Positions 5,409 to 25,780 of a stretch of 64,000 bases of DNA are shown here, piece by piece. Numbering within the stretch: position 1 is the stretch's first letter; every line of letters starts with the position of its first letter. The stretch lies in NCBI GenBank assembly GCA_020241125.1, contig GCA_020241125.1_4708.1. The stretch is one strand, 5' to 3'. The notes beneath the pieces are model-generated. The model was not told the DNA's origin. It did no database searches and worked only from the letters and a program-made list of their open reading frames with translations. Source of the stretch: a phage. Made by a program: the position numbers and the translations under genes.

Positions 5409-6200
5409 TTAGAACGCTAAGCCATCAAAGGCTACGGACGGATCATCGTCGTCATTTGCGCTTGGCGCATCCCAACGGGTATCAGGGGCCGCTGAAGCCG
5501 AACTTGATGCGTTAGAGTTACCGTTGTACTGGCCGTTACCAGCATTACGGTTACCGCCGCCGTTGTTATTGTTACGGTTATAGCTATTGTTGCCACCATT
5601 ACTTACGCTACGGCTTTCACCGTCGAAATTGGTTGCGAGGATGCTCGGCAACACTGCGCGATGAATACGTACAAATTCCAACGCACAAAGCGGAGAAACA
5701 ACCCCGATCTGTAAAGGTTGCCCAGACTCATCAACCAGAGCGTGGAAACGCGGTGGCTTGAATACGAATTGGATGTTCGGTTTTTGGTACGCGGTTACAG
5801 CGATATATACCGAACCATCATCGTTCTTACCAACCCATGTTGTACTTTCGGTAATCTGTTTCTTCTTACCTGGATTATTGCGATCGTCGATAACCTTTTC
5901 GTTCTTCATCGCAAAACGTTGGCCTGGCTTACCCTTAGCAACCTGCTCGAGGATCGCAAGCAGGTTATAGAACGCGTATGAACTCATGCGTGCCCAAATG
6001 CTTTCGGCGCGACCCTGCTGGTCTTTACGACCTGTATAAACCGTGATGCGCGGTTGATTCTTAGCAACGCTAATTTTCAATGAGGGGATTGAATTACCGC
6101 CCTCAACCTTTTCGTCCGCCCACAGTTTCCAGTTGTTGTCGTCATACGCTGTAGGAATAATGTTTCCTTGTGGTTTACTGCCCGAATTCCAATTGCTCAT
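5409..6200 (-). CDS. hypothetical protein with SSB-like architecture
   Basis: 263 aa: about 190 aa globular part, then a G/N-rich linker (NGGNNSYNRNNNNGGGNRNAGNGQYNGN), ending in an acidic tip DDDDPSVAFDGLAF. Confidence 0.5.
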   Translation of the reverse strand: MSNWNSGSKPQGNIIPTAYDDNNWKLWADEKVEGGNSIPSLKISVAKNQPRITVYTGRKDQQGRAESIWARMSSYAFYNLLAILEQVAKGKPGQRFAMKNEKVIDDRNNPGKKKQITESTTWVGKNDDGSVYIAVTAYQKPNIQFVFKPPRFHALVDESGQPLQIGVVSPLCALEFVRIHRAVLPSILATNFDGESRSVSNGGNNSYNRNNNNGGGNRNAGNGQYNGNSNASSSASAAPDTRWDAPSANDDDDPSVAFDGLAF

Positions 6201-6273
6201 TTTCAGCCTCGTTACGTAGTGTGAATCAATTTCTGGTTCAGATGATAGTCAATATTAGTTAAAAATTACAGCC

Positions 6274-7071
6274 TCAGCGGAACATGTCCAACAGAAAACG
6301 TTTTGCGAAGGGGTCACGTAACTGGTTGACACCAAAGCGTGTACGGTCTTCCGTTGTTAATGGATTCCACTGACTCTGTTTCGCAAGATCTAACAGCATC
6401 CTTTTTATTTTCACCGGCCCGCTATTGAACTGTACGGCTTGGTCACCGAACGTTCCCAATGTCATCTTTGTAAATGGAAGGTTCGCAACCTCTGGACGAT
6501 CCCCACCAGTAAGTTTGGTCGACCACTGATGTTTTCGTTTCAAGGTTCCGGTATGGCTCTCCACCAAAATAAGTTCACCAAAACCGGTTCTTGCCAACAA
6601 GTCAGAAACATAGTGCGTGGTGATATACGATGTCTTGGTTATCGTGGGTAATTTACAATCCATCGATTCGATATTAGGGAGTCGATCTACAGACGCCATC
6701 AACCCACGATAAAGTGTAGCGAGTCCTTTTTGTTTTTCGGTGTGTGGCTCCTTATGTATAGCGTGCGGATAAACACGCTTTATTGACGCATAGGTTGGCG
6801 CATATATCCGCAAACGAATATGGGGAATGAGTTCATTCACCAACTGCCTTAGCTGCAGTAACTCGTTTTGAAAATCCCCTGTTATCATCGATAACGGTAA
6901 TTTATGTTGTTCAACGTCTTCAAAGCTTTCAACGAAATTGCGTGCTAAAGTACGCAGGTTGAACAACCAATCCATCGGTGTTTCTGGCTGTTGCTGTACT
7001 GCTGATAGTGTTGCTGACGTCCCTACCGATAAAGGATAATCACCTAACGTGCGGGCGTACATATTGCTCAT
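6274..7071 (-). CDS. hypothetical protein
   Basis: Track ORF 6274-7107; likely start at internal Met (MSNMYARTLG...) preceded by AAGAAGGAG. Confidence 0.5.
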   Translation of the reverse strand: MSNMYARTLGDYPLSVGTSATLSAVQQQPETPMDWLFNLRTLARNFVESFEDVEQHKLPLSMITGDFQNELLQLRQLVNELIPHIRLRIYAPTYASIKRVYPHAIHKEPHTEKQKGLATLYRGLMASVDRLPNIESMDCKLPTITKTSYITTHYVSDLLARTGFGELILVESHTGTLKRKHQWSTKLTGGDRPEVANLPFTKMTLGTFGDQAVQFNSGPVKIKRMLLDLAKQSQWNPLTTEDRTRFGVNQLRDPFAKRFLLDMFR

Positions 7072-10535: not shown

Positions 10536-10572
10536 TCACTTAAGTAATATAGCCGTGAAAAATGTTGGATTA
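10536..10572 (-). promoter_or_regulatory. early-promoter-like motif, copy B
   Basis: Plus-strand TAAGTAATATAGCCGTGAAAAATGTTGG; minus-strand TATATTAC core about 95 nt upstream of the 10450 start. Confidence 0.45.
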
Positions 10573-11449: not shown

Positions 11450-12088
11450 TTAACCTAATTTACCACCGGCGATATTGGTGAAATCTTCGCCATCAGGAAC
11501 TTGCAGTAGGATACGTGCCATGTCCCAGTTGGTTAATGTAATTGCTTTATCATCGATACTCAGTTCTGGTAGGTCGAGTTCATGATCATCAAACTCGTAG
11601 GAAATACTCCACGTTTCATCTGTTTTAGGATCGGTTATCAACACACCGTCTGTTACACGCATGTAGTCCGGGTGCAGTTCATTACTGAACGTGCCGAACG
11701 GATCGGTGTAACATTCAGCATACCCCTCGATCTGCTGACGCTGTGCCTTCGTACGTAATTCAGGGCACGCCATGATCAGTTGTCGAGATATGCCGTTTGC
11801 AGCTCGGAAATCCTCCACGGTGTTACATGGCATAACCACATCGTCATGGAAGATGTTCTCCGATTGTCTCAGCAAAGTCTTACGGAGTTCAGCATAGTTT
11901 ATCTGATTGAATGCGTCGAACGTTGCTAACGATTCAGCGTAAAAATGCTTTACGTGTTCGCTTGCGCCGCCGAGGCTATTCATCAGCTTGTGGCCGTACT
12001 CCATAAAGCTTTTATCGAGACCGGAGGACATTTCTCCGAACCTCAGTGCACGATAACTGTCTCGTCCACCTGTAAATATTTGCGCCAT
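11450..12088 (-). CDS. hypothetical protein; possible RNA polymerase beta-prime region F / bridge-helix fragment
   Basis: 212 aa ORF with AGGAGGA 8 nt upstream, starting 15 nt after the exon 2 stop. N-terminus GGRDSYRALRFGEMSSGL loosely resembles beta-prime DSGARGS...AGMRGL; weak similarity only. Confidence 0.45.
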   Translation of the reverse strand: MAQIFTGGRDSYRALRFGEMSSGLDKSFMEYGHKLMNSLGGASEHVKHFYAESLATFDAFNQINYAELRKTLLRQSENIFHDDVVMPCNTVEDFRAANGISRQLIMACPELRTKAQRQQIEGYAECYTDPFGTFSNELHPDYMRVTDGVLITDPKTDETWSISYEFDDHELDLPELSIDDKAITLTNWDMARILLQVPDGEDFTNIAGGKLG

Positions 12089-12103
12089 TACAGGCGTCCT
12101 CCT

Positions 12104-12346
12104 TTAGCAATGGTTGTTAGTTGCTTCTATTTCGTCAAGATAAGGTTCTACGTCATCGCCCTCCACGAATTCGTTGAACCAACAGTCAATAGTGGAAATA
12201 ACCGGTGACTGGTGTTCACATTTCTTAGATACCTTAAAAGGTACGTTATTATCCATCATGCCGAGTTCGGGTCGAAAACGCCCGAAATGTTTCGCAGTCC
12301 AAATGTCTGGGACGATATGGTTGTTCATTGCGTCGCCGTCAAAGTC
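12104..12346 (-). CDS. non-virion-type RNA polymerase beta-prime-like subunit, exon 2
   Basis: Begins DFDGDAMNNH...MMDNN, matching the beta-prime NADFDGDQMAVH and LMMSTNN motifs; track ORF 12104-12349. Confidence 0.65.
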   Translation of the reverse strand, partial: DFDGDAMNNHIVPDIWTAKHFGRFRPELGMMDNNVPFKVSKKCEHQSPVISTIDCWFNEFVEGDDVEPYLDEIEATNNHC

Positions 12347-12696
12347 CACATATCTTCAGTATGAATCGCTACTTCATACCCGCAGCATTACCTGCAGCTC
12401 CTGGTGTTACCAGGACGGAGAGATCATCTCATCACCCACGAAGGGTGTTCCGCGCTACCCTCAGCGAATTCGAGGGACATGATCGTTGAACCTTCCACCG
12501 ATAATCGGTGGCTAGGCTGCTGATTAAACATTGTACGTTGGGGTGGCATCCTGGTTCAGGACTGTCGTTGAAGCCTCCCAACATCCACTCACTTATTTCC
12601 GCCTTATCGGCTCCCATAAGGGCAGAGTGGCTTTAGCCCGTCTCAGCAATTCACGGAATTCAAGCTCTTCCTTTCAGAAGGCAGGGCCTCATCTGA
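12347..12696 (-). other. putative group I self-splicing intron (no ORF) in beta-prime gene
   Basis: About 350 nt between GYNA (exon 1) and DFDGD (exon 2); read-through hits a stop. Exon 1 ends in U, insert ends in G. Contains GGUUCAACGAUCAUG with complementary AGAUGAUC downstream and several compact hairpins including a UUCG tetraloop. Confidence 0.55.
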
Positions 12697-13947
12697 AGCA
12701 TTGTATCCCTTAAGGATCATCACGCTTAACCCGATGGTATTATCCTGCGGATCGCGTTTAACCTTGGTGATTTCAAGACATTGGTTACTGCTTCGGTCAA
12801 GTGATGGGTTTCGAACAAAACCGCACACAATCCCATCGAACGGTGTATCAGCAATAAGCTCATCGTGCAGCTCACTCATCATCGGATGATAATTACGGAC
12901 ATGTTCCGCAACGAACGCACGTGCTGCTCTCGGTGAATAACCACGATGGAATAACTTGGATTGGATATGTTCTTTATTGGTTAAAGTAAATGGTGCGTAT
13001 GGGAAATGCAGATGATAATAACGATGGTTCGCTGTTATCGAACTGATTACAGTACGCGTGGTGAATGGATGTAATGTACCTAATATGTTTTTACGTGTGA
13101 TACCTTTCTTCTTACCGATGAACTCATCGAAAATCGCCGCATGGTATTGCAGTAGCTTCAATTGCACTTTCGCCATCCAGTTTTCTTTCTTTCTGGCGCT
13201 CAAAGGTGTTGTTGGGTGATAGATACTATTCAACGTACCGATAGCATCGATCGCACCTTCCATTTTGCTATCCGCATAACGACCGGTTGGCGTATTCTCG
13301 ATAACGAACATCATGGCCGCAGGAAAGCTGATATACTGACTGAAGAACTTATCACGATGGATACGGATGAATTCTCGTAGCGTATCAACTTTCTCCGTGT
13401 TCTTCGGTCCGCGTAACGTCGGTCCTTTATACAAGATCTCCATGATGCGATCGAAGTTCTGTATAAAACTATTTACACCGCGACGTATCCCGAATACATC
13501 GAATTGCTGCTCCAGATAGTTCTTGAGTTCGATGGGTCGTTTTACATTTGGACGGTAACTGGCATCAATGAGCCACGTCATCGTTTCAAAGCTTTTGATA
13601 TTCAACTCGCTTGCCAGCACGAGATGGACCAACGGGTTAATGAACGCATCAATTCCTTCAGGAACACGCGCCCAAACCGTCGAACGAATCTCTTGTTCTG
13701 CTGGATAGGTTACAACCGTTTTACAGTTCGGACACACCGTGCCGAGCAGCTCACCACGATTGTAGAAACCACAACCACATTGTGGCGTGATATCCAACGT
13801 ATCGCTGGAGTAAACACGGGTGATAAAACTGTTTAATTTCTTCTTCTCTTCGACGACTTTTGTATCGTAATCATTCAACAAAATCGGCGTGAAAGGAAGT
13901 TCTGCGAGCTGTCTATCGAAACTCACGATATCGAGCATGATGGCCAT
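12697..13947 (-). CDS. non-virion-type RNA polymerase beta-prime-like subunit, exon 1
   Basis: Zn-finger CGCGFYNRGELLGTVCPNC; RKNILG...TRTVISS (beta-prime RQNLLGKR..SGRSVI); GFVRNPSLDRSS (NRAPTLHR); ends GYNA. Track ORF 12643-13947 includes intron read-through. Confidence 0.65.
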
Positions 13948-13989
13948 GGGGTATCTCCTACAAATGAAAAAGAACGTTAGGACGTATAA

Positions 13990-14013
13990 GGGAGGGAGGT
14001 TGCCCTCCCTCCC
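13990..14013 (-). terminator. stem-loop, terminator or processing site
   Basis: 10 bp perfect stem GGGAGGGAGG / CCTCCCTCCC with 4 nt loop, between the 631 aa gene stop and the beta-prime gene RBS. Confidence 0.5.
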
Positions 14014-14039
14014 GTCAGATTACATCGAACGTTCTTCCA

Positions 14040-15935
14040 TTAGAACAGGTTGAATGCCCCACCCATGTTGTTAACGCCAACATTCGGACGATCGCTACGT
14101 GCGTAGATGTTACCGGAGATGTTACCCAGACCACGAGCACGTGCTGCCATGTTACCACGAACAGCGGTACCTGCCAGATGCTGGATGTTCTCAGGACGGA
14201 TGGTGAAGCCAGCATCAGCAGCGGCCTCGATCAGCGCCTGCAGTGCTAACGGATCGAAGTCGTAACGCATTGCCCAGCCGGTTTGTTCCCAGCTACCAGA
14301 CAGAACACGATCAATGATTTCGTGACGAGCGACAACACGCTGAGACATCGTCATATCGGTACGGTCGAAGCTGTCTTCCCAAGCTTCTACGGTATCCGGG
14401 TTAGTGATGTTCATCATGTACAGATCGTCCATATCACGAATATCGTGACGGTGACCATCCTGGTGGTTATAATGACCCAGCGGGATACGGTTACCGGTAG
14501 CGTAGACCAGTGGTGCGCCGTACTGATATTTCTTGCTGAAGCAACCCAGGGTAGTATCATCGAAGGCACGGAAGAGTGCTTTGTAACCTTCGGAGATTTC
14601 CCGGACTTCACCTTCAACTTTGCCCGTATAGATCTTCTCAGCCGCCGGGATCATACGCAGCAGCCAGCTGTATTCGCCTTCTTCCGGTACGTCGATAGAA
14701 ATCAGCAGAGACGGATACAGTACCTGTTGCAGGAACTTGTAAATCTGCTCGTTGGTTTGAGTAGACAGATCCAGCGGTGCGGTAACTTCCGGATCCAGTA
14801 CCATCGCCAGAGCACCCGGGTTATGCGGACCAATACCACGAGCAGCGTTGCTGATTAAAGACTGTGCCCACGCCATACCGCTGTTCAGCGTAGCGATGGT
14901 GCCAATCAGACCCAACACGAAAGTGTTCGGCGTGAACGCATCCAGCTCCAGCGGGTAAGCGCTGGTCATCACGTAACGCGGTTGGTATTGTACAGTCGGC
15001 GGTACCGGATAACCGTTAACCAGAACAGGGCCTTGGTTGAAGGTCGGGTTCTGCGGGCTGTAGGTCAGGTCAATGTAACCGGTGGTTGCGACCAGACGCT
15101 GCTGACTATCGTAATCGCTCATCGCTTGACGGATGCGGTTAGAGATAGTTACAGTGATGTCAGAACGCACAGGGTTACCAACAATATCGCTGTCCTGCAT
15201 ACCGCTGGTGTTGTACTGAACGCTGCTGATTGGCTGATCGCTTGCCATCATGCCCAGGTTGAACTGCGGCAGACCCAGTTTATCGCCGAGACGGATTTCG
15301 ATCGCGGTTTGGATTGCGTTATCTGCAGCAGACAGCAGGGTGGTTGCCAGATGCGCAGATTCAGCGGTGATTTCATTGGTCACCACAGCCAGACCAGCGA
15401 TACGAGCAGTACCATTAGACTTACCACCGATAGCTGCATACATTGCCGCCATGACTTCGTTGATGAACGTACCGTTCAGGTTATCAACCCAGGTACGCGG
15501 CACCAGAATGTTACCATGCGGGCCTTGTTCTTCACGACGCGGCAGCGGAGCCAAACCGGCAACCAGTGGAAGCACATAACCGAAGAAGTGGTTATGGTCA
15601 CCAACTTTTGCACCGCTCATAACAACCAGGGTCGGATACGGTACACTGTATTGGTTAGGATCGACGGTCACCATGATGAAGTCGTCTTTGAATCCTTTAT
15701 CTTCCAGTTCTTTTTCCATCAGACGACGGAGATTCAGTACCTGCTCGGAGCCAGTATTACGGCTAATACGACGGCTCAGTGTACGGTTGATCGTACGCAT
15801 CGTATGAGTTACTTTAGGCTGGCCAGCAAAATCTGCAGCGGTTTCCAGCGCCTCATCAGCACGTTGTGCGGTGCGGGTTTCAGCTGCACGAATTTCTACA
15901 TTATCGTTACCGTTATTACGTACGTCTAAGCCCAT
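14040..15935 (-). CDS. hypothetical protein; candidate phage-nucleus shell protein (chimallin-like)
   Basis: 631 aa; AGAGGA RBS; early-promoter-like motif C upstream; sits directly upstream of the beta-prime gene, the arrangement recalled for phiKZ gp54-gp55. No sequence motif verified. Confidence 0.4.
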   Translation of the reverse strand: MGLDVRNNGNDNVEIRAAETRTAQRADEALETAADFAGQPKVTHTMRTINRTLSRRISRNTGSEQVLNLRRLMEKELEDKGFKDDFIMVTVDPNQYSVPYPTLVVMSGAKVGDHNHFFGYVLPLVAGLAPLPRREEQGPHGNILVPRTWVDNLNGTFINEVMAAMYAAIGGKSNGTARIAGLAVVTNEITAESAHLATTLLSAADNAIQTAIEIRLGDKLGLPQFNLGMMASDQPISSVQYNTSGMQDSDIVGNPVRSDITVTISNRIRQAMSDYDSQQRLVATTGYIDLTYSPQNPTFNQGPVLVNGYPVPPTVQYQPRYVMTSAYPLELDAFTPNTFVLGLIGTIATLNSGMAWAQSLISNAARGIGPHNPGALAMVLDPEVTAPLDLSTQTNEQIYKFLQQVLYPSLLISIDVPEEGEYSWLLRMIPAAEKIYTGKVEGEVREISEGYKALFRAFDDTTLGCFSKKYQYGAPLVYATGNRIPLGHYNHQDGHRHDIRDMDDLYMMNITNPDTVEAWEDSFDRTDMTMSQRVVARHEIIDRVLSGSWEQTGWAMRYDFDPLALQALIEAAADAGFTIRPENIQHLAGTAVRGNMAARARGLGNISGNIYARSDRPNVGVNNMGGAFNLF

Positions 15936-16000
15936 TTGGGATTCCTCTTTTCTTAAACTTTATTAAATGACGTCATTGAATCAGCTTCTACTCGCTCATT

Positions 16001-16045
16001 CACCTAGGTAATATAACCCTGAAATTTTTTTCAATATTGGTGTAA
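16001..16045 (-). promoter_or_regulatory. early-promoter-like motif, copy C
   Basis: Plus-strand CACCTAGGTAATATAACCCTGAAATTTTTTTCAATATTGG; minus-strand TATATTACC about 70 nt upstream of the 15935 start. Confidence 0.5.
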
Positions 16046-16189
16046 CCACATTGAACGATATAAACCCCTAGGCGAACGCTGCCGAGAAGCAACATTCTTT
16101 CTACATATAATCAGGATATGTCTGTAAACTTTTACTTCTCTTATTGAGAGTAATGTCATATCCGTTTACCATCTTCTTACGGAGTTCGT

Positions 16190-17284
16190 ATGTTTCGTGT
16201 TTTAAATAACCTCCCGCGAACATCATCGGGTGTGCAACCCGTCCCTCAGAAAGACTATCTAATACGCGAAGTTCAAAGAAACCTACAGACAATCCAGAAC
16301 CACTATCAAGGTTTTACCTTCGCGGTTCAGAGCGATCACATCCTTGCGTTGCTGCTCGCACAGCTCCCTATGAGATACGACATCTCAGTACAAACTTACT
16401 ACGACATGATTCTCGATCTTACTCCAGAATTGGGTAATCGTGTTAAGTTGACAACATCAAGATACGCGGGTAAGTTATTCGACGGTGCTTTCTATCCGGG
16501 ATTGCACGAAGCTATTATCGCAACCGGTGAAAGTCGTCTTATTTCACGTGACGTTCTTGACAACTGGCGTAATTGGTCACCGGTTAGAATCGTGACGCAC
16601 CCATACGCAAATCTTCGTTACATTCCTCTTCACCGAAAGCCGGTTGAAGAAGGACGAGGTTTTGCGGTCATTATGGTTGATGTACCTTTATTAGCGCTAC
16701 AGTATCGAATGTGGTCTTTGGTCATGGGTCATAACGTCGACGGCAAATGGGTGGTTAAAGAACCGGTTACAAGCTTCCTTGCGAGTTTTCCGTTGGTTAA
16801 CGCATTATACTCACACAACGATGTTGTTATACGCAATCGTTGTTTGTGGGTATCTCCGGCTAAGAATCCACTCAAATCACCAATTTACGTTAACGACCTT
16901 GATAACGTATTCAGTCAAGTCGTTCTGTCCGTACAGCATCATTTATTACGAAGAAGACGAAGCTACACCGACATGCTTAAACAGATACCGAGTTTATACG
17001 GGGATCAGTACCAAGCAACCCGAATGGGTTACACCGTCGATCTTCGGCAAACGCGATGGGCAAGGGATCTGGGTTGTCTGTCATTATGGCAACAACTCGT
17101 CACGTTGCAAAACGTATCTGAAAGCGTCGGGTTCAGCAGTCAAATCGATAATGACCTGTACCGTGCTGCCGACCGGAGTCTAAAAGAAGGTAACTGGGAG
17201 TCCTCTCCGTTACCTGGCGATTTAAGACGTGAAGTTATCGCACAGGTTGCCGACCTCTTAAAAATTCTTCCCGCTGGTGCATAA
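16190..17284 (+). CDS. hypothetical protein
   Basis: 364 aa ORF; ACGGAG RBS; followed by hairpin 17305-17334. Confidence 0.55.
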   Translation: MFRVLNNLPRTSSGVQPVPQKDYLIREVQRNLQTIQNHYQGFTFAVQSDHILALLLAQLPMRYDISVQTYYDMILDLTPELGNRVKLTTSRYAGKLFDGAFYPGLHEAIIATGESRLISRDVLDNWRNWSPVRIVTHPYANLRYIPLHRKPVEEGRGFAVIMVDVPLLALQYRMWSLVMGHNVDGKWVVKEPVTSFLASFPLVNALYSHNDVVIRNRCLWVSPAKNPLKSPIYVNDLDNVFSQVVLSVQHHLLRRRRSYTDMLKQIPSLYGDQYQATRMGYTVDLRQTRWARDLGCLSLWQQLVTLQNVSESVGFSSQIDNDLYRAADRSLKEGNWESSPLPGDLRREVIAQVADLLKILPAGA

Positions 17285-17304
17285 TAACCTCCCTCCTCCC
17301 TTGC

Positions 17305-17334
17305 ATCCTCCCAACCCGTAAGGGAAGGGAGGAT
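17305..17334. terminator. bidirectional stem-loop terminator between convergent genes
   Basis: ATCCTCCC / GGGAGGAT 8 bp stem enclosing inner CCC-GTAA-GGG; pyrimidine run upstream. Confidence 0.5.
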
Positions 17335-17350
17335 GGGGTGGTGGGTTATG

Positions 17351-19504
17351 TTACTCTGCGGTTTCTTGCTTCGGTAAATAACTTGCTGCGATGTCTTGGG
17401 CTAACAATGTATTGTTTTTATTCGAGATGAAAATACCATAACTTTCCATTAACGCGTAATACGAACGCACGAGCGTAGAGATCAATCGACGAATATCCAT
17501 ACCTTGAATAAAGATATCAGGAAGCCCGGAGGCTTCGATCACCGGTAATGGTATCGTTAAGTTGCTTATCGTTTTCTTATCGTTACGTACAATCCAATCA
17601 CGGAAACGTTGTTGTAACCCTTTATCCTCCCAGGAATCAATCCAATCGTTAAGAAGCGTTTTGTTCTTCGTCGCCAACGGCACACGAACCCCAACATAGG
17701 GTGGTTCCTGGCAATGGCCGTACGATTGAGCAAACACCTCTTCCCACATATCGTAAGACTGTTTCGTTACTGCAACATGCGGTTTCACTTTAACACGTGT
17801 TAAGAAATCAGGATCACCACGTTTCATGGACTCAACGATTTCGTTTTCTAACGAGATAATATCGTCAAGAACCAATCGAATGCTGATCTTCTCGTTACGT
17901 AACAGCTTATCCATGATACCACACATCATGCGTTCAACACGTTTGACGATCATTTTTGGTGCTGACGCATCGCGCATAACCGGACCTTTCAATTCCAGCT
18001 TCGGTGGATTGATAGGAACCCCTTCACGCATGGTCATGTAACCGTAATAGTTTTTACCCATCGAGGTTAACGACAGAATCAAGAACATATATTCGTTCTT
18101 CATTTCCATCACGTACATATGCTCTTTCGCCACACCGATATTACCAGAACACATCGCCATCAGATGAACCGTAATCTGCGTAACCAGATAGATAAGCGTG
18201 TTTGCTAAGCGCGTCGAAACTGGATTGATCTCCATATTTCCAAATCGCCACTGAACCCACTCCTGGCAGGTAAACACCGTCGAGTCGGTATCAGACAACA
18301 CACCCACTTCACGGATTGCTGATGGGAAAGCATAAACACCAGCCGGTTGGTTCTCGGTACGCCAGAACGCCATAATCAAATCAGCATAGCTTTGAATACG
18401 CTGTAGCATTAATTTTGTCGTTGCTGCAGTAAGACGATAACCAAGCTCATTTCCTTTTTCTAGCGCTACGTAAATCGCTTCCCCATTCAAGAACTCCGTA
18501 CATTGTGCTGTAATCCAAGCGACCGTGTTGTTATCCATGGAAGCAATAATGGCTTTAGCCTCTTCCATCGTTTCAACAGGTTCGGATGCCAGCTCGCATA
18601 ACGAATCAAGAAAATCTCGAACAAATTCAGGATTAAGCTCACGTAACGAGTACAGGTTATTGCTATACATGTAGCAGGCGCGTTCCAGTGGGGTTAAACC
18701 GGTAATTAACTCCCGGATAGTCAGTTCTTTCTCTGGGTCGAAAGTATATCGATGCAAGCATTTCGATACGTTAGCCCAAACCTCTTCCGGCGTAGGGTAA
18801 TGTAGTTTGTATTTTACCATTACCTGTTCAATGGCTTTACGATCGCTGTTGCGGACAATACTCACGATGTTTTCAATTGCGATATCACAATCGTAATAAT
18901 GGAAATTGCCCGCAAGGAAGCGTTCGTTGTTCGCATTGGCTGAACCTGAAGCACAGCGACACGTTGTCGTTAAACTTGGATGCGCAATTGGATTATAAAA
19001 AGGGTTAAACTTGGACGCCTGGGTTCCTGACAAACTGTTGTTATCTAACTTGGTGTTGGTTTGTCGTTTATCGTGTAACTCAGCTTCATCTTTACGTCCG
19101 TGTGCTTGCGCTATCGACATTTGTTTCTTTTGTTTCTTACGCAACTTACCGTTTTCAACCGCAAAGTCGCTTAGCACACTGGAACGTGTTTCACGTGGAT
19201 AACAGTTAGCCCACACCGGCGTGATAATTAAATTATTTTCTTTAATATCATTGAAGTATTGGCTGAACTTGATGACTTCTTTTTCTCGATTTCCTTCGGT
19301 GCGCTGTGTTAATACAAGGCAGTCGGGATCAACCATCCCGTATTTTCCACCAGGACGAACCGTATCAAGGACAAACTGCAACGCTTCCTGCTGTGATATC
19401 CCACGCATGCGCATTAAGAACAGGGTATAATCCTGTACCGCTTCTTTGGTCATATCCAACGTACGGCCATATCCGTTTTCATCGTAAAAGAACGGATTTT
19501 CCAT
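17351..19504 (-). CDS. hypothetical protein; candidate divergent family-B DNA polymerase palm domain
   Basis: 717 aa; LSDTDSTVF (motif C-like YGDTDS), YSNNLYS about 120 aa upstream (motif B-like NSLYG), DNNSLSG further upstream (weak motif A-like); GGAGG RBS. Confidence 0.45.
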   Translation of the reverse strand: MENPFFYDENGYGRTLDMTKEAVQDYTLFLMRMRGISQQEALQFVLDTVRPGGKYGMVDPDCLVLTQRTEGNREKEVIKFSQYFNDIKENNLIITPVWANCYPRETRSSVLSDFAVENGKLRKKQKKQMSIAQAHGRKDEAELHDKRQTNTKLDNNSLSGTQASKFNPFYNPIAHPSLTTTCRCASGSANANNERFLAGNFHYYDCDIAIENIVSIVRNSDRKAIEQVMVKYKLHYPTPEEVWANVSKCLHRYTFDPEKELTIRELITGLTPLERACYMYSNNLYSLRELNPEFVRDFLDSLCELASEPVETMEEAKAIIASMDNNTVAWITAQCTEFLNGEAIYVALEKGNELGYRLTAATTKLMLQRIQSYADLIMAFWRTENQPAGVYAFPSAIREVGVLSDTDSTVFTCQEWVQWRFGNMEINPVSTRLANTLIYLVTQITVHLMAMCSGNIGVAKEHMYVMEMKNEYMFLILSLTSMGKNYYGYMTMREGVPINPPKLELKGPVMRDASAPKMIVKRVERMMCGIMDKLLRNEKISIRLVLDDIISLENEIVESMKRGDPDFLTRVKVKPHVAVTKQSYDMWEEVFAQSYGHCQEPPYVGVRVPLATKNKTLLNDWIDSWEDKGLQQRFRDWIVRNDKKTISNLTIPLPVIEASGLPDIFIQGMDIRRLISTLVRSYYALMESYGIFISNKNNTLLAQDIAASYLPKQETAE

Positions 19505-19562
19505 AAATCCTCCAAAAGTTATTTAGTCTGTCTACATCATCTCGTATATCTGTTAAAAAAGA

Positions 19563-19578
19563 AGGACGGCATAAAAAA
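19563..19578 (-). promoter_or_regulatory. TATGCCG element downstream of terminator
   Basis: Minus-strand CTTTTTTATGCCGTCC about 55 nt upstream of the 19504 ATG. Confidence 0.3.
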
Positions 19579-19607
19579 GAACCGATCCAGCCGAAGCCAG
19601 ATCGGTT
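19579..19607 (-). terminator. intrinsic terminator with UUCG tetraloop
   Basis: Minus-strand AACCGAUCUGGC-UUCG-GCUGGAUCGGUU (12 bp incl. 2 G-U pairs) then CUUUUUU. Confidence 0.6.
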
Positions 19608-19643
19608 AAAAAGGATAATAACTGACAGAAAGATATCGATGAT

Positions 19644-19745
19644 GTTCGTGAAACAAGATCTTCTCTCGTGTACAATGATGCTAGATCAGAGGGAGGTTGT
19701 AACACGAGAGGTGGTCCGCCAAAGAAGGAATAAAAAACACGAACC
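19644..19745 (-). ncRNA. structured intergenic RNA element of unknown function
   Basis: Nested inverted repeats: outer GTTCGTG / CACGAAC (19644-19650 with 19739-19745), inner CTCTCGTGT / ACACGAGAG (19664-19672 with 19703-19711) around a 30 nt loop whose minus-strand RNA contains CCUCCCUC. Confidence 0.3.
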
Positions 19746-19803
19746 TATCTTATTTCACTGATGGCACTAACCACTCAAAATATATAGTACCGTATGTAAA
19801 AGT

Positions 19804-20217
19804 TTACTGATTAATCAAGTCGTTAGCAACAATCTTGGTGTAACCCGCCTGATTAAGAATTTGATTAATTTTCGTCACGTCGGTCGCATCCTCAATAACG
19901 ATGCTGGGTTTATAGATCAGCGTCTTGGTAACGACGATTGTACTCTCCTTAATCCAAGGAATCCCTAGAATCACATACTCACCATCGGCTGTAATGACCT
20001 CGACGTAATTGTATTTCGTCGGATCGTTCGGTACACTAGACGGGAGCCGGGAATAAATCTGTTGGTGAATGGCGTCTACATCACGACCGTTACGTACAGC
20101 TGTGCGATAATTGTACACAGCGCTAATTTCTACTCCGTTGAAGTTAACCCCAAGTTCTGGGGCGTACACATCAAAACTCACAACAGAGCCAATCTTTTCT
20201 AAATCAGAAGCTGGCAT
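19804..20217 (-). CDS. hypothetical protein
   Basis: 137 aa track ORF. Confidence 0.5.
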   Translation of the reverse strand: MPASDLEKIGSVVSFDVYAPELGVNFNGVEISAVYNYRTAVRNGRDVDAIHQQIYSRLPSSVPNDPTKYNYVEVITADGEYVILGIPWIKESTIVVTKTLIYKPSIVIEDATDVTKINQILNQAGYTKIVANDLINQ

Positions 20218-20749
20218 AATAGCATCCTTTATTTAAAATGTATTCATATCCGAAAGTCGTCGCTGACCAGACCCGGATAGATGATAGTGTTCCGCCACGA
20301 TAAAACGTTTTTGTGAATTCCATATCCTGGACAACACGATAATAAACACGTCCGATAATACGCACGATAAGGTTTCGTGATAACGATCTCTCCTCGCAGT
20401 ATTCATCGATAAAGTCATCGTCGATATCCGATAAGACAACATCCGCAATTTCTTGCAGTAGATTCCTCATCAGCATCTGCCTTCCTTCGGTACCCCACCC
20501 AGACAAACAGTAATCGTCTTCTGCCTGACTATAGATGTCGTTAACCGCCTGTTCGAGCAGTTGCTCAAGATAGTAGTCATCGCGTTTTATAACGTGGCGA
20601 CGGCGCTCAGTGGCGTATTTTTCCATCCTGTGTTTCTCTTGTTCGGCGTATGTATTAACGACGCCACAGTCTTTTCTGGATCGTCCCACAATGCGCGACG
20701 AAAACTGGATACTACCATAACGGTAGGATAGATTTGTACAACCTCCCAT
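20204..20749 (-). CDS. hypothetical protein, start uncertain
   Basis: 181 aa track ORF; N-terminal part overlaps the upstream ORF in another frame, so an internal start is likely. Confidence 0.4.
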   Translation of the reverse strand: MGGCTNLSYRYGSIQFSSRIVGRSRKDCGVVNTYAEQEKHRMEKYATERRRHVIKRDDYYLEQLLEQAVNDIYSQAEDDYCLSGWGTEGRQMLMRNLLQEIADVVLSDIDDDFIDEYCEERSLSRNLIVRIIGRVYYRVVQDMEFTKTFYRGGTLSSIRVWSATTFGYEYILNKGCYYASF

Positions 20750-21075
20750 CCGTAACGATGTGCGTTAGTCGTACGTCCGACATTGAACAGACATAACTGA
20801 TTTAAGAAACAGAGCTGCATCTTCGTAAACAACACCATATCTTCACGTTTAACGTATCCGAGGATATATGCATTCTCGAACGCCTCGCGTGACAAGACGG
20901 GACGATTAAGATACCGTAACGCTAATACCAACAACGTTGTTATGCGCAACGGATCTTCTGGGTCATTCATGGTGCTCAGCTCTGCTTGTAACCAGTCAGG
21001 GATAGTAACCGTCAGACGATAGGTATCTGTTCCACGATCAACCACATTCAATGTTGAAAAAGGCAACATATCCAT
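20587..21075 (-). CDS. hypothetical protein
   Basis: 162 aa track ORF. Confidence 0.45.
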   Translation of the reverse strand: MDMLPFSTLNVVDRGTDTYRLTVTIPDWLQAELSTMNDPEDPLRITTLLVLALRYLNRPVLSREAFENAYILGYVKREDMVLFTKMQLCFLNQLCLFNVGRTTNAHRYGWEVVQIYPTVMVVSSFRRALWDDPEKTVASLIHTPNKRNTGWKNTPLSAVATL

Positions 21076-21613
21076 GAATTCCTTCTAGCTCGAGGTTGTT
21101 CTCGCCGGTCTTCGGTAATAACCCACTGGCCGTTAACATCTGTGTCATCGAGTAGTCAAAGCACGGGAATATCAGGTTAACGGTTTCCTGGATCGCGTCA
21201 ACATAACTATAAATGGCTTCATAATACTCACCGTCATGATCTACGCTAACCAGTTCCTGACACAGTTCTTCGCTTATCATTTCATATACCGGCGGATACC
21301 ACGATTGAAATGGTCGCTGCATACGTAACGACCAATACTCGTACGTCGTATACTGAAGCACGTCGTAAGCCGATACGTTAATGCGGTCGAAGAAAGCATA
21401 CTTGTCCATATGCTGATACAACATCGCCAGCACGGTTTCCAAGCACACCGATATCCGCACGCCGTCATCTTTCCCGTTAAGAAAATTAGGTTTCTGCCGA
21501 TAACGCACAAATGCCGACGGCTTTGATTGCATTATTCCACCACCAACCATAACGTCATACTCGTATCTAACGTAAAATTGAAATGCCACCAATCTTCTAC
21601 ACGTGGAATCCAC
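21038..21613 (-). CDS. hypothetical protein, start uncertain
   Basis: 191 aa track ORF; probable start at an internal Met near 21532-21550. Confidence 0.45.
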   Translation of the reverse strand: MDSTCRRLVAFQFYVRYEYDVMVGGGIMQSKPSAFVRYRQKPNFLNGKDDGVRISVCLETVLAMLYQHMDKYAFFDRINVSAYDVLQYTTYEYWSLRMQRPFQSWYPPVYEMISEELCQELVSVDHDGEYYEAIYSYVDAIQETVNLIFPCFDYSMTQMLTASGLLPKTGENNLELEGIHGYVAFFNIECG

Positions 21614-22215
21614 GTACGAAGGATTTGGTTAACTTCGCTTCGCATCACCGATAAACGACAACGAAAATCGAACTTCTCATCGTGGCCGTAGTCTTCATGC
21701 ATGAAAACTTCATCCAAAACGAACTCAAGTTGCATGTCGACATCACGGCCAGAGATATTCCGTTTGTACAGATACAGTTCAATCGTGTCGTAAAGCAACG
21801 TGTGAATATCATAATTTCCGTTCGGTGAGAAATAAGGTAATCGCTCATCGAGCATCGTAAACAGATATTCGCTGTAGTTTAATAACGGGATGATGTACCG
21901 ACGCCCTGTCTGTGGTGTGCGAATATGTATCGAAACCTGACTTGGGCGCGGAATAACCGACGGCTTAGAATCGTCTCTCTGAAATTGCTCTAAAGATCGC
22001 AACAAAGGTGGCCGCATTGTAACTCTCCAACGCCCAATTGTAAGGCCCTTCCAACATGTGTTCCCATACGTGAATAAACTCACTACCGAAGACAGGCTCC
22101 AGCGCCATGGTGAGATTCGTAAGTTCTGACGCAGCCGCATGGTAAGCATCAACATGTCTTTCCATTGACGGATCGTCTTCATTGAAAATACGTTCTGTGT
22201 CGCCAGCCCGCTCAA
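21532..22215 (-). CDS. hypothetical protein, start uncertain
   Basis: 227 aa track ORF; N-terminal about 85 codons overlap the next ORF in another frame; possibly one gene with 21965-22594 through a +1 shift. Confidence 0.3.
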   Translation of the reverse strand: MSGLATQNVFSMKTIRQWKDMLMLTMRLRQNLRISPWRWSLSSVVSLFTYGNTCWKGLTIGRWRVTMRPPLLRSLEQFQRDDSKPSVIPRPSQVSIHIRTPQTGRRYIIPLLNYSEYLFTMLDERLPYFSPNGNYDIHTLLYDTIELYLYKRNISGRDVDMQLEFVLDEVFMHEDYGHDEKFDFRCRLSVMRSEVNQILRTWIPRVEDWWHFNFTLDTSMTLWLVVE

Positions 22216-22594
22216 TAAGTTCGGTAATGAGATCTGTCCATGTCTCGTGACACGTCATCATTTCCTGTTCTCGACTTAGTATGCCGATGTCTGCGTGGAC
22301 GCTGGACTCGAACCGGTCTAAAAGGACCCGAAGAACGTGCACCTTGTCGATGTATTTCACCGTTATCCAGGAAAGCGGTTGCCACCGACTCAGCATCCAT
22401 CCGGTACTCGGGAACCCCAAACTCATATAGTACGGGTTGCACCGGACCGAAGACGGAGCGACGTTGTTTAAATCGCTCCTTAAGGGCAAGGCCTTGTTTA
22501 ATATAAACGGGTTCATTGGCGAGTTGTTCCGCTTTTCGTTTTGCGTGAGCCAATCGAAGTTCTTCCAATTGCCCAAGCCATTCAAATTGTTCAT
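21965..22594 (-). CDS. hypothetical protein, start uncertain
   Basis: 209 aa track ORF overlapping 22212-23189 by about 380 nt; plausible coding only from about 22355 or the Met at 22261. Confidence 0.3.
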   Translation of the reverse strand: MNNLNGLGNWKNFDWLTQNEKRNNSPMNPFILNKALPLRSDLNNVAPSSVRCNPYYMSLGFPSTGWMLSRWQPLSWITVKYIDKVHVLRVLLDRFESSVHADIGILSREQEMMTCHETWTDLITELIERAGDTERIFNEDDPSMERHVDAYHAAASELTNLTMALEPVFGSEFIHVWEHMLEGPYNWALESYNAATFVAIFRAISERRF

Positions 22595-23189
22595 CTGTTA
22601 GCTCCTGGGGACGTTCAACAATCGCGCCAGACGGGCAGATATTGATCGTAATGTTAATTGACGGCATCGCCATCACTCGAGGATTACTATTACGTACGCG
22701 GACAACATGTTCGGTTGCTGATTTACGATCGACGCAATACTCTGTTTCTTGGAACTCAAATGCTTTTAACGGTGTTGGTTTTATTTGACGTTTAGGAACG
22801 CGGCCAAGATCAACAATATAGGCATAATCGCACACACGTTCTATTCCGTAAATACGGTTATCCGACCAGTTCTTACCAAACAGCTTATTGTGGTGATAAG
22901 ACAGATATTCGGTTACCATACCCTGGACAACATCGAAGTCTTCTCGAAATTCAGGTTGGTACCAAATCGGACCGAGAATATCTGCGAACGATTCATGACG
23001 ATATCGAGGATCATGTCGAGTCCAGGTCATTCTCTGATTAAGATCGAAATCCACCAACAACTCGGTTAATTGCAATTTTTCCTTCGGAGAAAGCTGGCGT
23101 TGATGATGCAAACTCAGGCAATCGATAAGCGGTAATGAAACCCACGATGCTAATGTGTACAAATCGATCCTGGCTAATCTCTTGGTCAT
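22212..23189 (-). CDS. hypothetical protein
   Basis: 325 aa track ORF; last about 45 residues are Arg-rich and look out-of-frame. Confidence 0.5.
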   Translation of the reverse strand: MTKRLARIDLYTLASWVSLPLIDCLSLHHQRQLSPKEKLQLTELLVDFDLNQRMTWTRHDPRYRHESFADILGPIWYQPEFREDFDVVQGMVTEYLSYHHNKLFGKNWSDNRIYGIERVCDYAYIVDLGRVPKRQIKPTPLKAFEFQETEYCVDRKSATEHVVRVRNSNPRVMAMPSINITINICPSGAIVERPQELTDEQFEWLGQLEELRLAHAKRKAEQLANEPVYIKQGLALKERFKQRRSVFGPVQPVLYEFGVPEYRMDAESVATAFLDNGEIHRQGARSSGPFRPVRVQRPRRHRHTKSRTGNDDVSRDMDRSHYRTY

Positions 23190-23280
23190 ACTCTTTTCCT
23201 AAGTCCCCATTGTTTATACACACGATATCTGGGAATAGTTAAAATATACGGCGTAAAACGAAGCAGGAGAGTTTCTGACG

Positions 23281-23601
23281 TCATTTTCTCCCTCTTCGAA
23301 TACTACCGATACCTCTTTCGTCTAAGACGTCCCAGGCACGCTTTATTTCATCCTCCGTTGCTCTGGTATCTGGAGGGACAACCATAACACAGTCGTGGAA
23401 CGGCCAATGTGTAGGTCTGGGGTTAGCGAACAAATCATCCCATTCAAATGTCCATTCTTTCTTTGAGCGATTGTAGTAGAGCGTAAGGTACGTGTTGGTA
23501 TACGCCGGATAACCGCGCATAACTTCAATATCCTTACGATCTTGCCGTTCCTGATTCCAATCGTTAAACCGCTTTCTTATTTTCTCCCACCACTTTCCCA
23601 T
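23281..23601 (-). CDS. hypothetical protein
   Basis: 106 aa ORF; GGAG RBS. Confidence 0.5.
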   Translation of the reverse strand: MGKWWEKIRKRFNDWNQERQDRKDIEVMRGYPAYTNTYLTLYYNRSKKEWTFEWDDLFANPRPTHWPFHDCVMVVPPDTRATEDEIKRAWDVLDERGIGSIRRGRK

Positions 23602-23610
23602 GCTTTCTCC

Positions 23611-23623
23611 TACACGGCATAAA
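23611..23623 (-). promoter_or_regulatory. TATGCCG element downstream of terminator
   Basis: Minus-strand TTTTATGCCGTG about 20 nt upstream of the 23601 ATG. Confidence 0.3.
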
Positions 23624-23645
23624 AGCCTGCCCCGAAGGACAGGCT
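23624..23645 (-). terminator. intrinsic terminator with UUCG tetraloop
   Basis: Minus-strand AGCCUGUCC-UUCG-GGGCAGGCU (9 bp incl. one G-U) followed by UUUUAUG. Confidence 0.55.
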
Positions 23646-23654
23646 CGATAGAAC

Positions 23655-23855
23655 TTAACGACCATCCAATTTCAATGAAGGATGGTTGACGATATGTGCG
23701 TGTTTTGCTGGGTCATATAGCTGATATGGAAAATAGCCATGCCATTGACGGCCTTGGCATTTCGTACACAGGAACTGACCAACACCTTGTCGATTCTCGT
23801 AAGCGAGTTCGGTACTATCAACATGACCGCAACGTTCGCAGATAAACAGCGACAT
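23655..23855 (-). CDS. small zinc-ribbon protein
   Basis: 66 aa with CERCGH ... CTKCQG (two C-x-x-C pairs). Confidence 0.5.
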   Translation of the reverse strand: MSLFICERCGHVDSTELAYENRQGVGQFLCTKCQGRQWHGYFPYQLYDPAKHAHIVNHPSLKLDGR

Positions 23856-23892
23856 AGCGCATCCCCATTCACTTGAACCTTTTGGTTCGGCA

Positions 23893-24873
23893 TTAGAAAA
23901 GCAAGAAACCGCTATTCTTCGCTTCCGCTACAGTTTCGTCACCAACTTTCGGCGCTTGTTGACGTGCGTTACGATGTTCGATGTAACGTTTCGCTTCGTC
24001 CGCGATCTGTTTGATAATACCCCCTAAACGATCGGTACTTAAAACAAACGACGTCGCTTCACGAATTGGGCTGCTTTCAGGCACAAAACCATCGCAGCTG
24101 TAAATAGCGCTAACGCCCATGACTTTTGTCGCGTCTTTCGGATAAAGCGTACAGAAAGCAATCGGGCTATCGTTCTCTTTCGTCCAATCGTATCCCATGA
24201 ACGTATTCAGTTCGGTGATCGTTGGTTCCAAACCGGTAACACGTGGATGGTTTAAGAAGTTTTCCAGGTCGGCGCTGTCAAGACGACGGTTCTCGCCAGA
24301 AAACAGAACACAAAGCTGGCTAATAACAACCTGCACGTCCAGGTTGACATCCTGCTCCGATTTCCCATTTTCGCCATTCATGTGATAGCTAACAATCACT
24401 GGACGTTTCAACCCTTCTGCAGCCGCCATCAGTCCTTTGAAGGTGCGATCGGCGTTGATCGTTTGACGCTCGTCATCGAACGAGGCAACGATGCAACACA
24501 CCACACGTTCACCACGTTCCAGCAGGTTAGCAACCAACGCAGGACCTGCAACAGAACCTGAACCACCGCTCAGACTAAAGACCACGATATTAAATTTACC
24601 TGGCGTATGCTTATTCAGAATACCCGGGATTTGTGAACAGATCAGTTCAGCGTTCTCATCACGCTTCTTACCAGAACCGTCTAACTCACGACCGGCTACA
24701 TCTTTAAAGATGTAAATATGATCGTCACCCAGTGTGCTATCGCGTAGGTTAGCGCGGCTGGTATCGACATACGTCATGCTGTGTAATCCTTTCGCGACTT
24801 CGCCTTCAAATGCTGAGCCGATTTCGCCACCACAACCACCGACAGCCCAAATATGTACTTGGTTCTCTTGCAT
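23893..24873 (-). CDS. phuZ: tubulin/FtsZ-like protein (PhuZ-type spindle tubulin)
   Basis: 326 aa; N-terminal IWAVGGCGGEIGSAF (FtsZ GGGGGN / tubulin GQCGNQIG loop) and FSLSGGSGSVAGPALVA (tubulin signature GGGTG(S/T)G). Confidence 0.7.
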   Translation of the reverse strand: MQENQVHIWAVGGCGGEIGSAFEGEVAKGLHSMTYVDTSRANLRDSTLGDDHIYIFKDVAGRELDGSGKKRDENAELICSQIPGILNKHTPGKFNIVVFSLSGGSGSVAGPALVANLLERGERVVCCIVASFDDERQTINADRTFKGLMAAAEGLKRPVIVSYHMNGENGKSEQDVNLDVQVVISQLCVLFSGENRRLDSADLENFLNHPRVTGLEPTITELNTFMGYDWTKENDSPIAFCTLYPKDATKVMGVSAIYSCDGFVPESSPIREATSFVLSTDRLGGIIKQIADEAKRYIEHRNARQQAPKVGDETVAEAKNSGFLLF

Positions 24874-24937
24874 GTGAACTCCTAACTTAATATGTATTTA
24901 ACGTACAATGAATCTTTCTTTGCTAAAGGGGTGACCC

Positions 24938-25780
24938 ATGGGTGCTATTGACTACAGTGTAGATCGTATCTGTCGTACAATACCGGCAGATATCCTACAG
25001 TATTGCTATATCGATCGTTACGACTGGCGTAATCGCTATCCTCGTTCCGTAGAAGACATCATTACCGATTGGGTAATCCGTAAACGGGTTATCGGCGACA
25101 TCGATATCTACGGGGGACTACAAACCGTTATTCCCCTTGATGATGCAGGTGTCACAATCGAAGAAGTCACCATTAACTGTTATGTTTTCCACATTCCGTT
25201 GGAAGCCACACAGGGACGTTATATCACGTCCGCATTATCCATTATTTCAGGGAGCGTGAACAACTACGGAATAAACTATAACGGGCAATGGGGCGCTTTC
25301 AACCAAACCCAATTTCAACGTCAGCTTTGTGGGTGGAACCCCGCAAGCAACACGTTACAGCAAGGGATGAACGCGTTCGGTCCCATGAACGTTCTTAGTA
25401 CAGCCAACGTTGATATCATCGCCCCTAACACCATCATGGTGAACAACGTCACGCCTGTACAATTTCCCCTGAGCCTACGCTGTTTCCTTGCCCACGATCC
25501 GGAACTTACCAACCTCAGCATGGAGGTTTGGAACGACTTCTACAAACTCTGTTTATACGCCACGCAAAGTGACATCTACAACAGAACCGTTATCCGTCTC
25601 GATAGAGGTGTTACAGCACAAGGACAAGAAGTCGGTGCATTCAAGGAATACATCGATCGCTTTGCTGATGCTGAAAACACATATCAGGAATTCCTGAACG
25701 AAACGTGGGCTGGCGTTGCTGCCTGGAACGATCCACAAACTAAACGTCGCGCCATTCGACTACAAACCGGTTACTTCTGA
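24938..25780 (+). CDS. hypothetical protein
   Basis: 280 aa ORF; AAGGGG RBS; followed by terminator 25794-25818. Confidence 0.55.
   Translation: MGAIDYSVDRICRTIPADILQYCYIDRYDWRNRYPRSVEDIITDWVIRKRVIGDIDIYGGLQTVIPLDDAGVTIEEVTINCYVFHIPLEATQGRYITSALSIISGSVNNYGINYNGQWGAFNQTQFQRQLCGWNPASNTLQQGMNAFGPMNVLSTANVDIIAPNTIMVNNVTPVQFPLSLRCFLAHDPELTNLSMEVWNDFYKLCLYATQSDIYNRTVIRLDRGVTAQGQEVGAFKEYIDRFADAENTYQEFLNETWAGVAAWNDPQTKRRAIRLQTGYF

Follow-up and report, generated by a model that had tools for sequence, protein, structure and literature searches.

The phage nucleus of Escherichia phage vB_EcoM_Goslar has been seen by microscopy and tomography (PMC9891218, PMC9365700), and Goslar chimallin and PhuZ, its shell protein and its tubulin, rank among the best-characterised phage-nucleus proteins, with structures, cell biology and knockdowns available. 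Here we analyse a stretch of 64,000 nucleotides of phage DNA (NCBI GenBank assembly GCA_020241125.1, contig GCA_020241125.1_4708.1), hereafter the window, in which positions 14040-24873 carry genes for a chimallin and a PhuZ of the Goslar type, next to a non-virion RNA polymerase beta-prime gene split by an intron. Both nucleus genes are already known, being Goslar genes in a near-identical relative, and in themselves they are of minor importance. Their value is that of a positive control: with nothing but the raw sequence to go on, an earlier note identified the system, the shell gene and the synteny correctly. The only part of the analysis that may be new is an intron mosaic at the catalytic codons of the polymerase.

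A green fluorescent protein (GFP) fusion of Goslar chimallin (gp189) forms a shell around the phage DNA (PMC9891218; tomography in PMC9365700). Structures of this protein at 2.3-4.2 Å display the same tail-mediated packing as 201phi2-1 chimallin, with the tails termed NTS, CTS1 and CTS2 docking on neighbouring protomers (PMC9365700), and PMC10541120 describes chimallin as essential by knockdown. Goslar PhuZ (gp201) forms a filament vortex that rotates the nucleus, which is not positioned at midcell, and in the GTPase-defective mutant D202A rotation is impaired (PMC9891218). The Goslar vortex does no more than rotate the nucleus; the PhuZ spindles of Pseudomonas phages, in contrast, centre it. 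Published identities between the Goslar and Pseudomonas-phage proteins are 27% for PhuZ and about 21.5% for chimallin (PMC9891218). Known introns interrupt phiKZ gp55 and gp180 as well as the RNA polymerase of phiPA3 (PMC11512511, PMC11620839), and in phiPA3 and phiKZ the outcome of co-infection is settled by an intron endonuclease located in an RNA polymerase gene (PMC11620839). Mining of bacterial assemblies has taken the genus Goslarvirus from one genome to 237, and its relatives are on record in hundreds of such assemblies (PMC12768965).

Chimallin and PhuZ genes in a Goslar-like genome

We regard it as very nearly certain that the window is part of a Goslarvirus genome, that is, of a nucleus-forming jumbo phage of the Chimalliviridae with an enterobacterial host, and that the region at 14040-24873 is the conserved core block for nucleus-based replication. 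Goslar is the only megablast match of 12000-25000 (97.2% identity), and the whole window is collinear with it at 96.0-97.6% DNA identity, two large indels excepted, which bears out the assignment to a nucleus-forming jumbo phage made in the earlier note. Over 7.9 kb the window is 99.96% identical to a 238 kb contig from a bacterial isolate assembly (ABDDKD010000007.1; NCBI GCA_020395325.1), a provenance that fits the lytic Goslarvirus genomes published from bacterial assemblies (PMC12768965). The contig collection, which draws on NCBI assemblies and ENA metagenomes among others, has the identical chimallin protein in 44 blocks, the 238 kb contig being one of these. Megablast of the window against complete E. 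coli genomes and against a plasmid collection returned no match, which rules out, for those collections, a resident prophage or a plasmid. Comparison with Goslar indicates purifying selection, with 37 synonymous to 8 non-synonymous codon differences in chimallin, 20 to 2 in PhuZ and no amino-acid difference at all in the DNA polymerase.

The open reading frame that the earlier note had described for the shell protein is present exactly as given (14040-15935, minus strand, 631 residues, ATG start), and the chimallin call offered there is confirmed. Pfam family PF25677 (chimallin) matches residues 21-595 of 631 at 92.3 bits against a cut-off of 27 (E 2.7e-26), phrog_4795 ('nuclear shell protein') matches at 4.9e-52, and the best solved structure is PDB 7SQT 'Chimallin' (E=0), collinear over 631 residues. 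Further structure matches are phiPA3 PhuN (8FNE) and the chains named Chimallin in 7SQQ and 8IGG; the protein also matches the phiPA3 and the 201phi2-1/phiKZ-type chimallins. Identity to phiKZ gp54 is 25% over the aligned part (E=3e-18), and 201phi2-1 gp105 and phiPA3 PhuN, the founding, structurally solved members of the family, are likewise distant in sequence. On the above-threshold match over residues 21-595, the fold with its tail segments and the conserved gene block, we assign the predicted protein to the chimallin family.

Residue by residue, the protein is the same as Goslar chimallin (gp189 in GenBank MK327938; gp246 in RefSeq NC_048170; PDB 7SQT/7SQU/7SQV) at 623 of 631 positions (98.7%), and the two genes share length, genomic position and neighbours. 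The eight substitutions, written as window residue, position and Goslar residue, are E76Y, K80T, G81R, M88F, T90A, F455Y, T461V and A474L. Residues 1-75 and the C-terminal 157 residues (475-631) are unchanged, the lattice-building tail segments included; because all substitutions fall within 76-90 and 455-474, both tails are identical to those of the solved Goslar protein. By analogy with the published Goslar work, the window chimallin would form a shell around the phage DNA.

The possibility raised in the earlier note that this is a capsid, tail or other virion structural protein instead of a nuclear shell has next to no chance of being right. Nothing was found in its favour, the sole structural-type neighbour being the opposite-strand phiKZ gp52 homologue at 16190-17284. 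Against it stand the 98.7% identity to the 7SQT chimallin and the fact that PF25677 and phrog_4795 are the sole family matches of the protein; the scans of Pfam and PHROG brought up no family of capsid or tail proteins. The matches in Pfam, PHROG and PDB have already refuted it.

The chimallin gene is preceded by the features that the earlier note had seen there, a strong ribosome-binding site (GAGG, 8 nt ahead of the ATG) and an early-promoter-like motif, TGAAAAAAATTTCAGGGTTATATTACCTAGGTGAAT, with its core TATATTAC on the minus strand. This core occurs four times in the window, always on the minus strand (5262-5269, 10544-10551, 16008-16015 and 44973-44980); all four sites are intergenic, lie 58-124 nt upstream of a minus-strand gene and share the extended form TTSASNNNTATATTAC after an A/T-rich run. 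Upstream of phiKZ gp54 the corresponding stretch reads TGAAAAAAATTTGAGATTTATATTACTAAATTGAAT, near-identical to the window motif over about 36 nt and, like it, 73 nt before the start codon. Site position, strand and phiKZ conservation suggest a promoter, and we infer that TATATTAC before chimallin may serve the virion RNA polymerase as an early promoter. Sigma-70-like promoters are no commoner in the window than chance would give (20 found against 23.5 expected), which fits transcription independent of the host polymerase. Early promoters of phiKZ have an AT-rich consensus (PMC10914365). As an observation in its own right, the motif upstream of chimallin is nearly identical in phiKZ and the window although the chimallins are only about 25% identical.

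The second nucleus gene, also present exactly as noted earlier (23893-24873, minus strand, 326 residues, ATG start), encodes a PhuZ. It matches phrog_4733 ('tubulin PhuZ') over its full length at 3.2e-68 and, among solved structures, 9PM9 at 1.6e-219, phiKZ gp39 (3ZBP) at 8.7e-29 and 201phi2-1 PhuZ (3R4V) at 5.8e-15, so that a tubulin fold is not lacking. Both GTP-binding peptides quoted in the earlier note are there, VGGCGGEIGSAF at residues 11-22 and SGGSGSVAGPALVA at residues 102-115; they hold the nucleotide-binding loops GGCGGEIG (12-19) and SGGSGS (102-107), and the catalytic aspartate Asp202 is kept in RRLDSADLENF. The tubulin/FtsZ GTPase domain, glycine-rich loops and catalytic aspartate place the predicted protein in the PhuZ family, whose founding, solved member, 201phi2-1 gp59, is distant in sequence. 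To Goslar PhuZ (gp201 in GenBank, gp234 in RefSeq; PDB 9PM9/9PMK) it is identical at 324 of 326 residues (99.4%), GTPase signatures and Asp202 among them, with two conservative substitutions, V for Goslar A at position 59 and D for Goslar E at 229. The differences of both proteins to Goslar coincide with their mismatches to 7SQT and 9PM9, which means that those PDB entries carry Goslar sequences. By analogy with Goslar PhuZ, the window protein would form GTP-dependent filaments and move the nucleus (PMC9891218). The earlier note had PhuZ position the nucleus; the identification stands, whereas positioning belongs to the Pseudomonas-phage picture and does not hold for the Goslar type, which rotates it.

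That the gene instead encodes a TubZ-type DNA-segregation protein of a plasmid or prophage is highly improbable. The reading can appeal to phiKZ gp39, which was first described as 'TubZ' (PDB 3ZBP), and to a Pfam tubulin score under the cut-off; it is opposed by the 324/326 identity to a Goslar PhuZ that forms a nucleus-rotating vortex (PMC9891218), by the lack of any match in the plasmid collection or the complete E. coli genomes, and by the surrounding genome, which is that of a lytic jumbo phage.

Several points weigh against the identification of the block, or against parts of it. Function is carried over from a relative with 97% DNA identity. Of the eight chimallin substitutions, five lie close together at residues 76-90 and the remaining three at 455, 461 and 474. 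The Pfam tubulin family PF00091 scores 29.6 bits, just under its 33-bit cut-off, so that it is the PHROG match and the solved structures, rather than Pfam, that carry the PhuZ call. The count of TATATTAC is not enriched in the window (four sites against 2.2 expected; 16 of 100 shuffles reach four). From the comparison with the phiKZ gp54 upstream region we tentatively take TATATTAC to be the phiKZ early-promoter consensus; the literature searched did not confirm it, the string itself leading to unrelated papers only. Nothing that we found contradicts the identification of Goslar-type nucleus genes.

The non-virion RNA polymerase beta-prime gene and its intron

The next minus-strand gene starts 92 nt past the chimallin stop codon and is of the phiKZ gp55 type. 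The earlier note was thus right to place the shell gene directly upstream of a beta-prime gene; it had also counted the non-virion RNA polymerase within 14040-24873, whereas the gene lies outside, at 12104-13947, and the large (717-residue) gene inside that span encodes a DNA polymerase. The unspliced open reading frame, 12643-13947, matches phiKZ gp55 (PDB 7OGP_A) at 1.3e-60 and ends in ...LKGYNASDEALPSERKSLNSVNC and a stop codon, at a point where the phiKZ protein goes on with ...NADFDGD. That an intron interrupts the gene had escaped the earlier note.

A second exon opens 350 nt downstream of the first with GAC TTT GAC GGC GAC. Removal of 12347-12696 joins AAT GCT to GAC TTT in frame and yields a 497-residue protein: the genomic ...YNASDEAL... 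becomes ...YNADFDGDAMNNH, and the predicted junction-spanning peptide is ...GYNADFDGDAMNNH. With the intron taken out, the match to the fused chain 7OGP_A of phiKZ gp55/gp56.1 improves from 208.8 to 255.3 bits (1.1e-74), the alignment being continuous through NADFDGD, and after splicing in silico cellular beta-prime subunits join the match list. The catalytic NADFDGD motif of the subunit is intact only with the 350-nt intron removed. Homology is to gp55 (7OGP_A, phrog_2987) rather than to the virion paralogue, which is encoded separately, at 54608-56296 (phrog_2986, 1.1e-180).

The splice-site context, ...AAUGCU/UCAG...AUGUG/GACUUU (slashes mark splice sites), has a U before the 5' splice site and a G at the end of the intron. 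In the proposed P1 helix GCU/UC pairs with GAGGC, and intron B of Goslar carries a compensatory change (GCU/UA with UAGGC). The Rfam group I intron model RF00028 gave no match in the whole window or in 12200-12850, even when the gathering threshold was relaxed to an E of 1; the intron was therefore established by comparison and covariation instead. Its family, which includes the phiKZ gp55 intron, shares the elements AATTGCTGG, CAATCAGCAGC, GTTCAACGA and, near the 3' end, GCTGCAGGTAATGCTGCGGGTAT, and the 3' end and core of the window intron are homologous to the phiKZ gp55/gp56 intron.

Covariation was assessed on five related intron sequences from two lineages, with P7 added by hand to the consensus structure. 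The core, P3-P9.2 plus P7, comprises 89 pairs, with 97.7% of cells paired against 36-42% in slid controls, and compensatory changes occur at 27 pairs against 1-2 in those controls; as the sample is small and holds two lineages, these counts show conserved structure, not a probability. For four of the five measures, the observed values lie beyond those of every shuffle. P7 exists in three paired forms, GATCAT/ATGATC, GAATAC/GTATTC and GAGTA/TACTC. A J8/7-P7 element first suspected at the 3' splice site ('GAAGATAT') was rejected, the true P7 being GATCAT with ATGATC, and matches to the intron 3' motif on three IMG/VR sequences (L009, L011, L014) were coding sequence (AAGKAAGMKKGG...), not introns.

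From the core helices with their covariation, the splice-site bases and the in-frame ligation, we assign 12347-12696 to the group I introns, and we expect this intron to be self-splicing. The competing explanation is that the open reading frame at 12643-13947, ending in ...NASDEALPSERKSLNSVNC and a stop codon, is a truncated or decayed pseudogene and the 350-nt stretch junk, not a functional intron. We consider this very improbable. Phages like phiKZ cannot carry out middle and late transcription without the non-virion RNA polymerase, which argues against decay. The exact 350-nt removal that joins NA to DFDGD in frame, raising the match from 209 to 255 bits, argues against it as well, as do the 27 compensatory base pairs with their three different P7 helices, and the fused phiKZ gp55/gp56.1 chain has been solved as one polypeptide (PDB 7OGP). 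The flanking exons, moreover, keep 97.5% identity between phages that share only about 70% in their introns. In favour of a pseudogene are the silence of Rfam even at E up to 1, the Goslar annotation, in which the two exons are separate genes, and long-read transcriptomics of phiKZ, in which the homologous intron showed no splicing in the conditions used (PMC10914365). The two-exon gene with a group I intron remains our reading in what follows.

Intron arrangements at the NADFDGDA codons

We compared the beta-prime intron loci among Goslar-like phages (loci L006 and L007, about 6240-6990, and those named below), calling W the intron of the window and A and B the two introns of Goslar. In the window W stands alone, between NA and DF. 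In Goslar (locus L002, 13863-15661) intron A, with the HNH endonuclease gp186, is followed by a 13-nt micro-exon, CGACGGTGACGCT, and by intron B before MNNH. An intron A that lacks an open reading frame, followed by a 13-nt micro-exon and intron B, is seen in three contigs whose chimallin is identical to that of the window. Finally, a 237.5 kb IMG/VR contig (L015, 4263-4990) has W, an 18-nt micro-exon encoding DFDGDA, and then B. With three insertion points within 24 nt, three introns and at least four combinations, we lean towards regarding the NADFDGDA codons of the non-virion beta-prime gene as a group I intron hot spot in Goslar-like phages.

Intron A, which follows NADF, scores 46.9 bits with RF00028, below the 50-bit gathering score, and its guide GAGUCGG pairs with exon CCGACUU; intron B, the homologue of the window intron, scores only 16.7 bits. 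W, B and the phiKZ gp55 intron form one lineage, inserted at NA/D, A/M and N/A, respectively, and their proposed P1 helices pair with only three exon bases (GCU or GCC). The phiKZ intron (in locus L008, 8834-10198) thus sits in the beta-prime gene 3 nt upstream of the window site, at N/ADFDGD, and carries the HNH endonuclease gp56, whereas the window intron lacks an open reading frame. W and B are about 70% identical, against 97.5-97.8% for the exons, and are therefore distinct relatives, not one recently moved intron. The idea that W is Goslar intron B shifted by 18 nt was rejected on the same comparison (about 70% against 97.5% exon identity) and since the L015 contig carries both.

The virion RNA polymerase provides a further site. 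The Goslar virion beta-prime gene has a group I intron of about 2 kb, with the predicted endonuclease gp206, at GGD/FDGD, whereas the window copy is intron-less, which is the second of the large indels. Since Goslar has introns at DFDGD in both its virion and its non-virion beta-prime genes, the DFDGD codons of both phage RNA polymerases are used as intron sites.

Mobile group I introns that carry homing endonucleases in chimallivirus RNA polymerase genes, such as that of phiPA3 gp210 (Birkholz et al. 2024, PMC11620839), likewise hit conserved catalytic codons and vary in presence among related phages; the window intron differs from the phiPA3 gp210 type in being without an endonuclease gene. 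In the literature searched we found no description of the Goslar-clade arrangement, in which introns differ between phages about 97% identical in DNA and the magnesium-binding DFDGD codons would be repeated landing sites for self-splicing introns. If this is true, the mosaic could underlie intron-based competition between co-infecting Goslarviruses, and the Goslar clade would provide naturally occurring alleles with and without introns, in a phage system of E. coli, for the co-infection question.

On a further sequence, an ENA metagenome scaffold (L004, about 4900-6650), no beta-prime exon 1 gene is called and exon 1 ends 155 nt later than at the other loci, which points to an additional insertion or to a frameshift.

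Neighbouring genes and proposed working of the block

The gene order of the region is that of phiKZ, namely gp50 DNA polymerase, gp52 on the other strand, gp54 chimallin, gp55, gp56 and gp56.1; the order gp54 then gp55 given in the earlier note is correct, and the window matches phiKZ from gp50 to gp55. Order and strand pattern are shared with the phiKZ gp50-gp56.1 block, while the chimallin and gp52 proteins are only about 24-25% identical. The description of the region as one leftward block does not hold, for it is interrupted by the plus-strand gene at 16190-17284 and by the terminator-like hairpin at 19580-19607, at whose equivalent place the Goslar annotation also has a terminator. What the span contains is a conserved block for replication and transcription rather than one operon made up of nucleus genes. 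Coordinates are collected in Table 1.

Table 1. Positions of the genes and other elements discussed, in window coordinates
Feature	Positions	Strand	Details
ChmC orthologue, nucleus-associated RNA-binding protein	5409-6200	minus	99.6% identity to Goslar gp176; outside 14040-24873
Non-virion RNA polymerase beta-prime N-terminal subunit, exon 2 (DFDGDAMNNH...)	12104-12346	minus	including stop codon
Predicted group I intron without open reading frame	12347-12696	minus	350 nt; splits the catalytic NA/DFDGD codons
Non-virion RNA polymerase beta-prime N-terminal subunit (phiKZ gp55 type), exon 1	12697-13947	minus	ends ...LKGYNA; phrog_2987 4.1e-115
Chimallin (ChmA), major phage-nucleus shell protein	14040-15935	minus	631 residues, ATG; PF25677, phrog_4795, PDB 7SQT
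phiKZ-type early-promoter-like motif TGAAAAAAATTTCAGGGTTATATTACCTAGGTGAAT	15998-16038	minus	TATATTAC core at 16008-16015, 73 nt upstream of chimallin start codon
phiKZ gp52 homologue (gp52 annotated structural head protein)	16190-17284	plus	BLASTP 24% identity, E=3e-15; phrog_3938, phrog_14481
Divergent family B DNA polymerase (phiKZ gp50 type)	17351-19504	minus	717 residues; PF20286 681 bits; phrog_2927 2.5e-206; protein 100% identical to Goslar
Terminator-like hairpin, strong	19580-19607	minus	12-bp stem then CTTTTTT; between SH3DP and DNA polymerase genes
SH3-fold protein (SH3DP), associated with phage DNA polymerases	19804-20217	minus	PF20287, 125 bits
PhuZ, phage tubulin/FtsZ-family GTPase	23893-24873	minus	326 residues, ATG; phrog_4733, PDB 9PM9/3ZBP/3R4V
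Virion RNA polymerase beta-prime gene	54608-56296	minus	562 residues, uninterrupted; reads ...GGDFDGDT..., 54781-54789

The protein identities, phiKZ synteny, motif conservation and intron structure found here are consistent with the following sequence of events, in which the use of the promoter and the self-splicing are our own extrapolation. The injected virion RNA polymerase probably transcribes chimallin from the phiKZ-type early promoter, and chimallin would then self-assemble through its N- and C-terminal tails into a square lattice enclosing the phage DNA. Such lattice assembly has been demonstrated for the chimallin of Goslar (PMC9365700), from which the window protein departs at 8 of 631 residues, all outside the tails. 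Inside the shell, the divergent family B DNA polymerase and its SH3DP partner would replicate the genome, while the non-virion RNA polymerase, its beta-prime N-terminal subunit spliced from two exons, would transcribe the middle and late genes. PhuZ with GTP would form filaments, which in Goslar make up the vortex that rotates the nucleus, a rotation blocked by the change of Asp202 to Ala; shell assembly, filaments and rotation are here taken over from the published Goslar work.

Between the SH3DP and PhuZ genes lie about eight small genes, two of which match PHROG families of unknown function, with a few weak matches besides. Six small to medium minus-strand genes at 20228-23189 have no Pfam or PHROG family and appear to be Goslarvirus-specific. 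Outside the block, the window encodes an orthologue of Goslar gp176, which is ChmC (10.1101/2023.09.22.559000), and thereby contains a third characterised component of the phage nucleus.

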